Below are positions 1-12,905 of a DNA stretch of 12,905 nt, in pieces (positions within the stretch are counted from its first letter, which is position 1; every line of letters starts with the position of its first letter). The stretch comes from Deltaproteobacteria bacterium (GTDB lineage Bacteria > Myxococcota_A > Polyangia > Polyangiales > Houyiibacteriaceae), in assembly GCA_034670305.1 (NCBI GenBank), contig JAXMNT010000094.1, positions 1-12,905 of the forward strand, written 5' to 3'. The notes under the pieces are model-generated. The model was not told the origin of the DNA. It saw only the letters and a program-made list of their open reading frames with translations, and made no database searches. Made by a program: the position numbers and the translations under genes.

Positions 1-51
1 GAGCAGGTCGTCGCGATGCTCGTCGCGCTGATCAAGCGATCTGACCGCTGA
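1..51 (+). CDS. 3' end of a CDS truncated by the window edge; probable four-helix-bundle protein (TIGR02436 / 23S rRNA-IVP / bAvd-like family)
   Basis: Frame 1 reads EQVVAMLVALIKRSDR* (TGA 49-51) with mostly GC-ending codons. It is an amphipathic helix resembling the '...ERIVAMLTKLI' C-terminus I recall for this family, and is followed by a hexamer tract. Only 16 aa are visible. Confidence 0.5.
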   Translation, partial: EQVVAMLVALIKRSDR

Positions 52-56
52 TCCGC

Positions 57-131
57 GGGCAAGGGCAAAGGCAAGGGCAGGGGCAAGGGGCAGGCTGCGA
101 GAACGCCCTGCGGGCGTTCTTCAGCACCTAG
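57..131 (-). repeat. Composite hexamer-tract/hairpin element, copy A
   Basis: About 5-6 degenerate AAGGGC units at 57-95; perfect 9-bp stem AGAACGCCC-tgc-GGGCGTTCT at 100-120; TCAGCACCTAG at 121-131. The minus strand reads CTAG-GTGCTGAAGAACGCCC...-(CCCTTG)n. Confidence 0.85.
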
Positions 132-3694: not shown

Positions 3695-3781
3695 AAGGGC
3701 AAGGGCAGGGGCAAGGGCAAGGGCAAGGGCAAGGGCAAGGGCAACGTGTTGCGGGGCGCTTTCAGCGCCCGCTACACGTTG
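3695..3781 (-). repeat. Composite hexamer-tract/hairpin element, copy B (overlaps the ychF stop)
   Basis: 8 AAGGGC units at 3695-3742 (one is AGGGGC); imperfect hairpin CAACGTGT-T-GCGGGGCGCT-ttc-AGCGCCCGC-T-ACACGTTG at 3742-3781. The minus strand reads TAG-CGGGCGCTGAAAGCGCCCCGC...-(CCCTTG)n. Confidence 0.92.
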
Positions 3782-4878: not shown

Positions 4879-4924
4879 GACGCGCCGGGTACCACGCCGA
4901 AGGGCACCGCGCGATGCGATATTC

Positions 4925-5017
4925 TTGGGGGCACAGCCCCCAAACCCCGTCCGTGACACGGCTTGCTCGCTTCGCTCAGCTTCGCCGCGTCGGATATTGC
5001 TGGTCTCTCGCGGGGTT
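4925..5017. repeat. REP-like structured intergenic element
   Basis: 8-bp stem TTGGGGGC-aca-GCCCCCAA (4925-4943) followed by ACCCC; AACCCCG (4943-4949) pairs with CGGGGTT (5011-5017); imperfect inner stem 4950-4962/4984-4994 encloses CTCGCTTCGCTC. Confidence 0.65.
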
Positions 5018-5019
5018 CC

Positions 5020-6189
5020 TCAGCGGAGGAGCACGCGGACCAGGGTGGCGCGGTGGACTGCGCGCGGGGGCGGGGTGGCGTCGATCGCGACCAGCTCGTC
5101 CACGTCGCTGCGCGGCAACCAGTAGAGCAACATCGCGGCGGGGGCGCGGGGGCCGAAGAGCGATTCGCGCCAGCCCTCTTCGAACGCGGCGGCTTCGGGC
5201 GCCGTCAACCCGTGGGCGATCAGATCCTCGCGAAGCGCTCGTTGTCCATCCTCGCCGGACAGCTCGGTCTCGGGGAACGGTACGGTCACCCGGCCGCCGG
5301 GCGCCGGCCAGTCGATCCGCTCTGCCAAGATCGGAGACGGAACCACCAGTCCGCCGCGCCCTGCACCACCACTGCGTCCACGCAGCCCTAGGCCGTAGCG
5401 TTGGTAGCCCCGCGCCACGAACCAGATCGAACCAACCGTCGAATCGGTCGACCCTGCCTTGCGCTCGAGTTCGAGGTCGGCGCGGTAGCCGGCATGGGTC
5501 GTCTCGAGGGGCAGTTCGAGCGGTGGGGGCGGGTTGCCGTTCGGGTCCGGCGTCGGGGCGCTCCGGTAGAAGAGCAGGTGCTGTCGCGCGTCGCTTACCC
5601 CGAGACACGCGGACTCCGGGTTTTCGAAGGCCGCCAGCGAAGCCGCTTCGCACTGATGATCGAGGATGCCCACGCAGCCTGCCTCCGCGACCACCGGGTA
5701 GCGCCGCTCCGCTGGACACGCGCCGCGGGTGGCTTCCACGTGCCAGGAGATCGTCGACGCGGGCGACCGGTCGTCGCCGGGGCGCGGGAACCACTCGACG
5801 TGTTGCAGGCCCTGCAGGGCGCGAAGCTCGAGGTCGATCGTCGCCGCGTCGACTCCCTCGCCGAGATGCACGTAGAGGATCGGCAGGCCGTAGCCCACGC
5901 CGGCCGCGCCGAGCCCGCCCGTGGGACCGTGCAACGAGCCGGCCTGGTAACCGACGACCCCGCCGTCTGGGCCGACATCGAGCACGCCCCACTCGTGGAG
6001 GTCGTAGACGGGCGGAGGCGGCGGAGGGGGCTCCGGTGCGGTGACCGGCGCCTGCGCCGGCTCTTGCGTCTCGTTTCCACCACACCCGAACGCTGCCAGG
6101 AGCACCATGCCGATCACACTGCCGATCGCACTGCCGATCGGAATGCCGATCCGACGGCCGATCGCATTGCCGTTTCGCATGGAGTTCAT
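5020..6189 (-). CDS. Hypothetical lipoprotein with HEWG motif
   Basis: Hydrophobic segment ending in lipobox-like LAAFG|C (Cys codon 6084-6082), Pro-rich linker, then LHEWG, PILYVH, EWFP and C-terminal L.AHGLTAPEAAAFEEGWRESLF. Start is uncertain (ATG 6225, 6189 or 6180). Confidence 0.72.
   Translation of the reverse strand: MNSMRNGNAIGRRIGIPIGSAIGSVIGMVLLAAFGCGGNETQEPAQAPVTAPEPPPPPPPVYDLHEWGVLDVGPDGGVVGYQAGSLHGPTGGLGAAGVGYGLPILYVHLGEGVDAATIDLELRALQGLQHVEWFPRPGDDRSPASTISWHVEATRGACPAERRYPVVAEAGCVGILDHQCEAASLAAFENPESACLGVSDARQHLLFYRSAPTPDPNGNPPPPLELPLETTHAGYRADLELERKAGSTDSTVGSIWFVARGYQRYGLGLRGRSGGAGRGGLVVPSPILAERIDWPAPGGRVTVPFPETELSGEDGQRALREDLIAHGLTAPEAAAFEEGWRESLFGPRAPAAMLLYWLPRSDVDELVAIDATPPPRAVHRATLVRVLLR
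6108..6179. repeat. 12-bp degenerate tandem repeat (TGCCGATC-N4), about 6 units, within the lipoprotein signal region
   Basis: Units start at 6108, 6120, 6132, 6144, 6156 and 6168 (last degenerate); they encode (xxIG)n: AIGRRIGIPIGSAIGSVIG. Confidence 0.8.
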
Positions 6190-6231
6190 GCCTCTACTAC
6201 GTCTGAGCTCGGCGCGAGCTTCCATGAACCG

Positions 6232-11993: not shown

Positions 11994-12784
11994 ACTGGGA
12001 TCTGTACTGGCGGTTCGAAGCATTCCGCCGCGCCTGCGACCCGCTCGACTTCCGGAAGTGGAAACGCGACAGCCAGCGCGCGCTGCGCGGGCTGTACCCG
12101 GGACCCGACGTGCGGCTGCTCGACGCGACGGCGGGCATGGGCGACCACACCGTGAACCTCGCCGAGGAGGGCTTCGTCGTGGAGTGCACCGACGAGAGCC
12201 CTCGCGCGCGCGCGATGACCCGGGCGGCGCTGGACGAAGCCGGTCTGCAGGTGCCGGTGCACGACGTGCGGTGGCAGGACCTCGGCGACGCGATGCCGGG
12301 CCGCTTCGATCTGATCTTCAACGACGCGCTCCACTGGACCTACGACGAAGAAGAGATGCGCGCAGCGTTGCGCGGGACGCTCGGTGCGCTGCGGCCCGGC
12401 GGCGCGCTCGTCTTCTTCTTCGCGGACGCACGGAAACCAGCGGAGGACAGCGGCCGTCGGCTGCTGGAGCTCGAGTGGGGACCGAAGTCGGCGCCGCGGC
12501 TCGGCTGGTCGCACGCCACCCCGCAATGCGAAGTGACCCTCACCCTCCATGCGACGAAGGGATCCGATCACATCGACGAACACCACGTCTACCTCGAACG
12601 CGATCTGGAGAGCGGCGCCGTGCAGCCGAGCGTGCTGACCATGCGCCACGTCTACCGATGGGACTGGTTCCATCTCGTGCCGATGCTCGAAGAAGCCGGG
12701 TTCGTGGATGTGCGCAGCGACGTCTTCCCGAACGTGGCCAAGGGCTACGACTTCGCAATGAACCGGGCCTTCCGACCAGCCTAG
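11990..12784 (+). CDS. Class I SAM-dependent methyltransferase
   Basis: Motif I LLDATAGMGDH, VECTDES, RFDLIFNDALHW, LRPGGALVF. Probable TTG start at 11990 overlaps the MBL stop (TTGA), with GGAG at 11978-11981; GTG 11981 is an alternative. Confidence 0.85.
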   Translation: MNWDLYWRFEAFRRACDPLDFRKWKRDSQRALRGLYPGPDVRLLDATAGMGDHTVNLAEEGFVVECTDESPRARAMTRAALDEAGLQVPVHDVRWQDLGDAMPGRFDLIFNDALHWTYDEEEMRAALRGTLGALRPGGALVFFFADARKPAEDSGRRLLELEWGPKSAPRLGWSHATPQCEVTLTLHATKGSDHIDEHHVYLERDLESGAVQPSVLTMRHVYRWDWFHLVPMLEEAGFVDVRSDVFPNVAKGYDFAMNRAFRPA

Positions 12785-12842
12785 CAGGTCGCTGAAAAGC
12801 GACCTGCTCCCTTGCCGTTGCCCTTGCCCGTGCCCTTGCCCG
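12781..12842 (+). repeat. Composite hairpin/hexamer-tract element, copy D (overlaps the methyltransferase stop)
   Basis: CTAG, then perfect 11-bp stem AGCAGGTCGCT-GAAA-AGCGACCTGCT (12783-12808), then CCCTTG CCGTTG CCCTTG CCCGTG CCCTTG CCCG (12809-12842). Confidence 0.92.
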
Positions 12843-12905
12843 CGTCGTGGACGCCGTGTGTTTCGCGACGGCGAGGCGCGAATCGGAGCGCGATGCCCAG
12901 CGGAC

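Follow-up and report, generated by a model that had tools for sequence, protein, structure and literature searches.

The DNA analysed here (the window, 12,905 nucleotides) is the entire contig C94 of a 7.93-Mb genome of 68% GC in 105 contigs (G000), and its position 1 is the contig start, the edge falling inside a high-copy repeat. The window opens with a frame that reads EQVVAMLVALIKRSDR and then stops (positions 1-51). This is the end of a four-helix-bundle gene, here called the passenger, and behind it lie a hexamer tract, a hairpin and CTAG (Table 1). The same order, including the 5 nt between stop codon and tract, had been given in a preliminary description and was found at those positions on re-reading. 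The assignment of the gene to the four-helix bundles, made in the same description, is borne out by profile matches of longer copies in the same genome (PF05635, E 1.5e-17; TIGR02436, E 1.5e-19), by intact relatives and by a fold model, and the longer copies end in the same bases as window 1-126. The period-6 tract motif of the window is not due to chance, with 18 matches against a shuffle mean of 0.28 and none of 200 shuffles having as many. The inner stem of the hairpin pairs 100-108 with 112-120. Its stability shows no excess over shuffles of the same GC-rich stretch (z -0.41), and we take the hairpin as real because it is conserved at both ends of related elements; the ends of its terminal repeat match those of IS5 relatives that lack the passenger.

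This first element end (copy A), which abuts an exonuclease gene, is one of 12 altered right ends among the 73 right ends at contig edges, and since it belongs to this damaged class the interior of copy A may be deleted. Two further arms (copies B and D) had been suggested to be solo arms or binding sites and described as opposite in orientation to copy A. The opposite orientation holds relative to the host genes but not relative to the genes of the element: there, a G-rich arm follows a stop codon in either case, that of the four-helix gene for copy A and that of the transposase for copy D. Copy B, which begins directly after the TAG stop of ychF and adjoins no piece of transposase or passenger, is indeed an arm-like unit on its own. 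Copy D is not; it is the opposite end of another element copy, cut by the contig edge.

Table 1. Coordinates of the features of copies A, B and D in the window
Feature	Position	Strand	Basis or remark
Four-helix-bundle passenger gene (copy A), last 16 codons and stop	1-51	+	TIGR02436/PF05635; identical in bases to annotated copies; length 117 aa in intact relatives
Spacer of 5 nt from stop codon to tract	52-56	+	Sequence
Subterminal hexamer tract, GGGCAA, 5.5 units	57-89	+	Inverted counterpart of the opposite-end tract
End hairpin	90-126 (approx.)	+	Inner inverted copy of terminal repeat, GC stem with 3-nt loop, terminal repeat (minus-strand reading)
Damaged terminal-repeat tip (4 nt lost) and CTAG target at 128-131	127-131	.	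Comparison with intact ends
Copy B, diverged solo arm	3695-3774	-	Terminal-repeat-like hairpin 3751-3771, tract 3697-3744
CTAG target of second element copy (copy D)	12781-12784	.	The TAG within it terminates a methyltransferase-domain frame
Copy D opposite-end terminal repeat, 11-bp hairpin	12783-12808	+	Comparison with element ends
Copy D hexamer tract, CCCTTG, 5.5 units	12809-12841	+	Tandem-repeat reading
Copy D non-coding interior up to transposase stop codon	12842-12905	+	Transposase on minus strand, past contig edge

Other repeats are also present in the window. Two small palindromic mini-elements lie side by side at 4917-5020 (69 and 29 anchor matches in the genome), and their units are nested in many element copies at ATAT sites, often at deletion joints. 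A 9-base tandem repeat of 5.7 copies (941-992) separates the converging exonuclease and sensor-kinase genes and overlaps the last codons of the latter, and a 12-base tandem repeat of 5.4 copies (6108-6172) is found near the start of a 401-aa frame (5020-6225).

An IS5-family element and its intact relatives

Metagenomes were scanned with the passenger as query, and the best 80 of 341 loci were taken. Two of them (L173 and L174) are complete elements, 92% and 90% identical to the query and 1722 and 1719 bp long, with the order CTAG, terminal-repeat hairpin, (CCCTTG)n, transposase, passenger (divergent), (GGGCAA)n, hairpin and CTAG. They code for a 354-aa transposase and a 117-aa passenger, separated by a gap of 70-72 bp (70-85 bp in the layout of the element overall). 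The L173 transposase scores 261 bits against NF033581 (cut-off 140) and has the domains DUF772 and DDE_Tnp_1, and the passengers score 78-79 bits for TIGR02436 (cut-off 24) and 76-78 bits for PF05635 (cut-off 33.8). Pieces from our genome cover L174 except for 306 of 1723 bases, the interior pieces listed matching at 81-99%. The divergent transposase-passenger layout is found in 17 of the best 80 loci (two nearly identical), a share that is silent on how many IS5 elements carry a passenger, since the passenger was the query. Compared with L173, their transposases are about 64-94% and their passengers 44-93% identical. Both ends are visible in 11 of the 17 (1692-1743 bp), namely L173, L174 and nine more, in all of which a single IS encloses the passenger gene between its ends. 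As deleted copies, this layout was also seen in a Planctomycetota record (G041, a 1.8-kb contig that may be misbinned) and in a Kofleriaceae record (G042). A second transposase-like frame (L072:657-1793) starts right at the CTAG beside the element in G041.

IS5 relatives without the passenger (1.2-1.35 kb) have the same CTAG and terminal repeat and weaker end hairpins. Hexamer tracts were seen at none of their 21 ends, versus 18 of 23 ends in passenger-bearing elements. They are present as several identical copies per genome, and therefore the passenger is not needed for transposition. Comparison of their ends and of the intact elements with the window shows that positions 1-131 are one end, on the passenger side, of an IS5-family transporter IS of ~1.72 kb. 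By IS convention this end is the one upstream of the transposase, and the passenger is inserted between it and the transposase start. We consider it highly likely that the element is such an IS and that the passenger is a selected part of it. The preliminary description had suggested, as one possibility, that the arms act as terminal inverted repeats, in agreement with the repeats and CTAG at both ends of the intact relatives. It had also proposed a cassette in which the gene sits between mirror-image arms. The opposite (CCCTTG)n-hairpin arm does exist, as seen from the 46 left-right arm pairs described below and from the C-rich tract upstream of 7 of the 8 element-type gene copies whose upstream sequence is available, but a gene-only cassette is unsupported because in the intact unit an IS5-family transposase separates the left arm from the gene; this transposase, 1.2 kb inside, had been missed.

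The DNA of the element was not found in 40 relatives, save for hexamer tracts and two passenger-like genes, and the arm pattern occurs in 2 of 400 other genomes of the phylum, with neither a transposase nor a passenger within 1.5 kb. Two genomes of the same order (G382 and G406) carry arms alone or miniatures lacking the gene, of the tract-hairpin-CTAG build (L161, L162 and L166). In a plasmid collection, 213 records match, the best of them in the transposase only, and none covers 80% of the element. An Rfam search of four intact elements gave only one match, at chance level.

Copies, ends and target in the genome

Searches of the genome with window 1-131 (right arm) and 12780-12905 (left arm) gave 138 right and 135 left matches, among them 46 same-orientation left-right pairs within 3 kb (176-727 bp long). 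Anchors outside the tract count 125 right and 129 left copies, and the copy number of the element in this genome is about 125-135. Among ends where the terminal repeat could be located, CTAG comes next at 85 of 99 on the right and 109 of 124 on the left; the 26 right and 5 left ends at which the repeat was not located or is cut off are outside these counts. The bases beyond CTAG show no consensus among the anchored copies, and dispersed copies have unrelated flanks. With its arms forming 137 of the 210 contig ends of the assembly and 246 of the 463 GGGCAA tracts lying at its ends (217 lie elsewhere), the element accounts for about half of these tracts and for 137 of 210 contig breaks. A similar end motif stands beside 47 of the 217 non-element tracts, compared with 5 for the opposite side of the tract and 102 of 2000 windows chosen at random, and the length of other GGGCA-type tracts in the genome also peaks at 5 units.

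Letter-identical ends number 56 on the right and 77 on the left, and the commonest right-end variant lies at contig edges in 57 of 58 cases, assembled internal copies being mostly altered. The copies comprise a young cohort of about 55-60 near-identical elements, which breaks the assembly, and older ones that have internal deletions and contain nested mini-elements. Two oppositely oriented genes are represented by pieces in the assembled copies; the transposase C-terminus adjoins the left arm, and fragments in different deleted copies span codon 1 to 361. The assembly has no intact transposase (only fragments, DUF772 not being found) and no intact passenger of this element, every assembled copy being broken. 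In Logan contigs from four runs of one study, from which this DNA may itself derive, a collapsed contig of 475-1043 bases stands at 48-58 times the depth of its flanks, a depth that is not equal to copy number and fits the 57 young ends. It covers mid-passenger and continues into the N-terminal codons and beyond, the reading of this continuation covering 30 letters. A database protein of 117 aa (P0013), which passes the TIGR02436/PF05635 profile, equals the passenger pieces of our genome at 117 of 117 positions. From the collapsed high-depth contigs and P0013, a full-length form of the element very probably exists in this organism but has been lost from the assembly by collapse. The number of copies and the depth of the collapsed contig also suggest that the passenger moves with the element.

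CTAG flanks both sides of the 11 intact relatives and most ends in our genome. Starting from 5 complete copies flanked by CTAG at each end, the search for a paralogous empty site found none; CTAG is therefore a presumptive target duplication, and duplications of 2-4 bp look alike in sequence. An apparently restored frame at C10:138354 was discarded as empty-site evidence, as it reflects insertion at a stop codon rather than a split gene. At 120 of 194 junctions (62%) the target's TAG closes an open frame of at least 150 codons, compared to 1070 of 2776 other CTAG sides (39%). Long open frames are common by chance at this GC, and the enrichment of junctions at frame ends fits the survival of harmless insertions. 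No U-run follows the element hairpins, and a reading of them as intrinsic terminators was rejected.

The genome has 37 other PF05635 matches, which belong to other cassettes. The upstream C-rich tract, looked for as the preliminary description had suggested, was present at the element-type gene copies (7 of 8) and at only 4 of these 37. Three further, mostly intact families of four-helix genes were seen among them (such as C35:10682-10981, C78:519-812 and C37:72423-72674), with a conserved structured upstream region, a downstream hairpin, other hexamer runs and no transposase seen. A link to 23S rRNA intervening sequences, also raised earlier, did not hold up: no element arm is found in the assembled 23S gene (C85:11277-14289, matching the whole model).

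The passenger gene and its arms in other elements

Selection on the two genes was compared in 9 pairs, one of which was too close to score, leaving 8 informative. Passenger dN/dS is 0.06-0.23 in 7 of these 8 and 0.50 in one distant pair; transposase dN/dS is 0.09-0.24, with dS similar to that of the passenger. Purifying selection on the passenger inside elements persists across dS above 1. These substitution patterns, together with the distribution of tracts, show a passenger kept under purifying selection like the transposase and travelling with the tracts. The passenger of L173 and L174 sits on a long branch, which suggests a passenger swap rather than strict co-inheritance with the transposase. 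Passenger-bearing transposases require 2 changes on the tree, and no bootstrap tree (0%) places them together on a single side of a branch, leaving a single origin of passenger capture unsupported.

To our knowledge, the TIGR02436/PF05635 family is very widespread and has solved structures, and no function has been assigned to it outside diversity-generating retroelements (DGRs). The passenger model (pLDDT 95.5) has four helices and a TM of 0.89 to XCC0516 (2GSC), with BT_0352 also matched. Against Avd (PDB 4DWL and 8UB7) the TM is 0.80-0.83 at 15-18% identity. In a sequence search of the passenger, XCC0516 was the only match among structures, and no Avd model or chain was among the matches. 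XCC0516 is reported as a homopentamer (PMC4990558), and Avd as a pentamer shaped like a barrel with positive charge, which binds RNA and on which the DGR reverse transcriptase depends (10.1101/2023.10.23.563531). By analogy with 2GSC and Avd, the passenger would be a homopentameric ring.

The best 80 loci include 63 other loci, 52 of them with enough flank to score. Inverted similarity between the flanks was found in 29 of the 52, versus 2 of 52 controls and 7 of 135 background cases, in line with the earlier remark that short tandem repeats often flank genes of this kind. Of the other loci, 26 have hexamer tracts on the upstream side and 25 on the downstream side (background, 8 of 335 windows). 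When 82 neighbouring frames were scanned against Pfam, taking the longest frame per side and missing some neighbours, transposase domains of four Pfam types were found. Inverted ends with a score of 40 or more enclose both transposase and passenger in 10 of 19 other transposase-adjacent loci, and in 8 of these 10 the repeat visibly includes hexamer units; in the remaining 9 the ends are weak, cut off, or between genes. The enclosed four-helix genes accompany a DUF4096-type IS5 (L188, L227 and probably L204), DDE_5 (L200 and L210), DDE_3 (L212 and L217) and IS66 (L230 and L242), the tenth being L239; we take DDE_5 to be IS701 and DDE_3 to be IS630. Passenger orientation in these other IS types is tandem or divergent.

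Tract lengths were counted after removal of near-duplicates, which kept 69 of the 80 loci. Length peaks at 5-6 units: in the IS5 family, tracts of this size follow the passenger at 9 of 15 ends and the transposase at 8 of 11, and elsewhere they occur at 19 of 46 upstream flanks versus 5 of 415 background windows. This peak could come from common descent or from selection on duplex length. As a general role of the tracts, a G-quadruplex or Rho loading was considered and not adopted, since transposase-free loci show either polarity and non-GGG units. Some transposase-free cassettes (L176:2348-2877, L152, L150 and L156) have IS-type ends and CTAG around the four-helix gene, which is intact in L176; judged by their ends, they are putative mobile insertion cassettes. 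Reverse-transcriptase frames adjoin four-helix genes in 2 of the 63 other loci (L193:749-2098 and L222:862-2211).

Possible roles and related systems

From what is known of the family, the transposase would recognise the terminal repeats and insert the element at CTAG, and it would act in trans on deleted derivatives, also into CTAG. The passenger may form a ring like that of XCC0516 and Avd, and such a ring could bind the paired or single-stranded tracts at both ends, as DNA or as read-through RNA. Binding of this kind might improve movement of the element or lower its cost. Binding of the inverted tracts by the passenger, to the benefit of the element, is our favoured though tentative reading, to which we give somewhat less than even confidence; if the protein does bind them, this would account for unrelated IS with the passenger also carrying inverted ends inside their terminal repeats. 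It is possible, and on balance doubtful, that TIGR02436 proteins are general mobile-DNA accessory factors, a five-fold ring reading about five inverted hexamers at both ends. The module would have been recruited independently by IS5, IS701, IS630 and IS66, with transposase-free copies and solo arms as derivatives, and the passenger might do for DDE transposases what Avd does for the DGR reverse transcriptase. If the accessory reading is true, the protein would be a shared helper for several IS families, and the short tandem repeats that flank four-helix genes would be offered an origin.

The gene and its inverted tracts may instead form a self-contained cassette that serves a function of its own or of the host and contributes nothing to transposition; an IS would have landed inside or beside it, and end-to-end copying would have made the tracts subterminal. 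Such a hitchhiker is conceivable rather than probable. It would explain why inverted arms are frequent at transposase-free loci (29 of 52; L045, L049, L147 and L148), why passenger-free IS5 relatives are mobile, and why there are signs of passenger exchange and several capture geometries, tandem and divergent. However, a single landing would put both tracts on one side of the transposase, whereas at least 8 loci of other transposase types, and the IS5 family, have a tract inside each end. The purifying selection inside elements across dS above 1 also argues against it, and some of the transposase-free loci with IS-type ends and CTAG (L176, L152) may themselves be element derivatives. We think it unlikely that the tracts work by pairing in host read-through transcripts so that the element is looped out, as the preliminary description had considered, with RNase III cutting and the protein chaperoning the RNA, such that the transposase is silenced or the host operon spared. 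Pairing of the first with the last 110 nt is predicted at 31-37 pairs in L173 and L174 on either strand and at about 76 for L198, yet any inverted repeat yields such a prediction. Intervening sequences with this protein family are reported to use a terminal stem cut by RNase III (PMC4990558), and Avd to bind RNA (10.1101/2023.10.23.563531); the 120 of 194 junctions at the end of a long open frame also count in favour of this reading. But with the two genes divergent, both arms occur together only in read-through RNA; the assembled 23S gene contains no copy, no Rfam match above chance level was obtained, and the transposase already explains mobility.

A passenger that helps the host, for instance in stress or defence, with tracts and hairpins as mere terminators or microsatellites, seems quite improbable to us. 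Transporter IS are described as carrying passengers of varied function (PMC9330008), and 217 of the 463 GGGCAA tracts in this genome are not at element ends; on the other hand, no U-run follows the hairpins, the tracts track the passenger, and their lengths peak at 5-6 units, which is not the shortest class. In addition, all assembled copies here have a broken passenger, as expected of selfish copies and not of host-selected cargo. Hardly any weight attaches to the idea that the contig start is a chimeric repeat join with a spurious gene end. The window does begin at a contig edge in a high-copy repeat, but the same bases occur in the same order at 125 anchors and in intact elements of other metagenomes, and L173 and L174 refute it.

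The TIGR02436 gene studied here is part of a two-gene, self-mobile package of 1.7 kb with defined ends, which offers natural passenger-free controls and a candidate ligand, the tracts of 5-6 units, for testing the role of the family. A search of the open literature, with subscription papers and ISfinder outside it, found no paper joining four-helix-bundle genes to insertion sequences. The kind of element, a transporter IS, is known, and the passenger-plus-arms module was not found described in that literature. Its closest relatives are the passenger-free NF033581-type IS5 (L092-L095, L119, L074 and L079), which have the transposase family, the terminal repeat CAGG..GCTGA and the CTAG flanks in common with it; the present element is ~400 bp longer, with the divergent four-helix gene inside its upstream end and with hexamer tracts and strong hairpins at both ends. 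The ORF-bearing intervening sequences of 23S rRNA, as described in PMC4990558, share the protein family and a gene enclosed by complementary ends, whereas the element lies outside rRNA and has a transposase and DNA-level ends and target. Avd of the DGRs (10.1101/2023.10.23.563531) has the same fold and is likewise a small accessory gene beside a mobile-element enzyme, but the intact elements hold only a DDE transposase and the passenger, with no reverse transcriptase or template repeat. In Geobacter metallireducens, 4-5 short tandem repeats are paired on opposite strands, some of them beside IS (ISGme8 and ISGme9, at a fixed distance), and were read as regulator binding sites (PMC2700814); those units are of 7-8 bases, and the main text of that paper makes no mention of S23. 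Transporter IS, mobile insertion cassettes and MITEs, as already known from PMC9330008 and PMC6542083, share with our element a passenger inside the ends of a single IS and non-autonomous deleted derivatives; what differs here is a TIGR02436 passenger tied to inverted hexamer arms and recurring in unrelated IS families.
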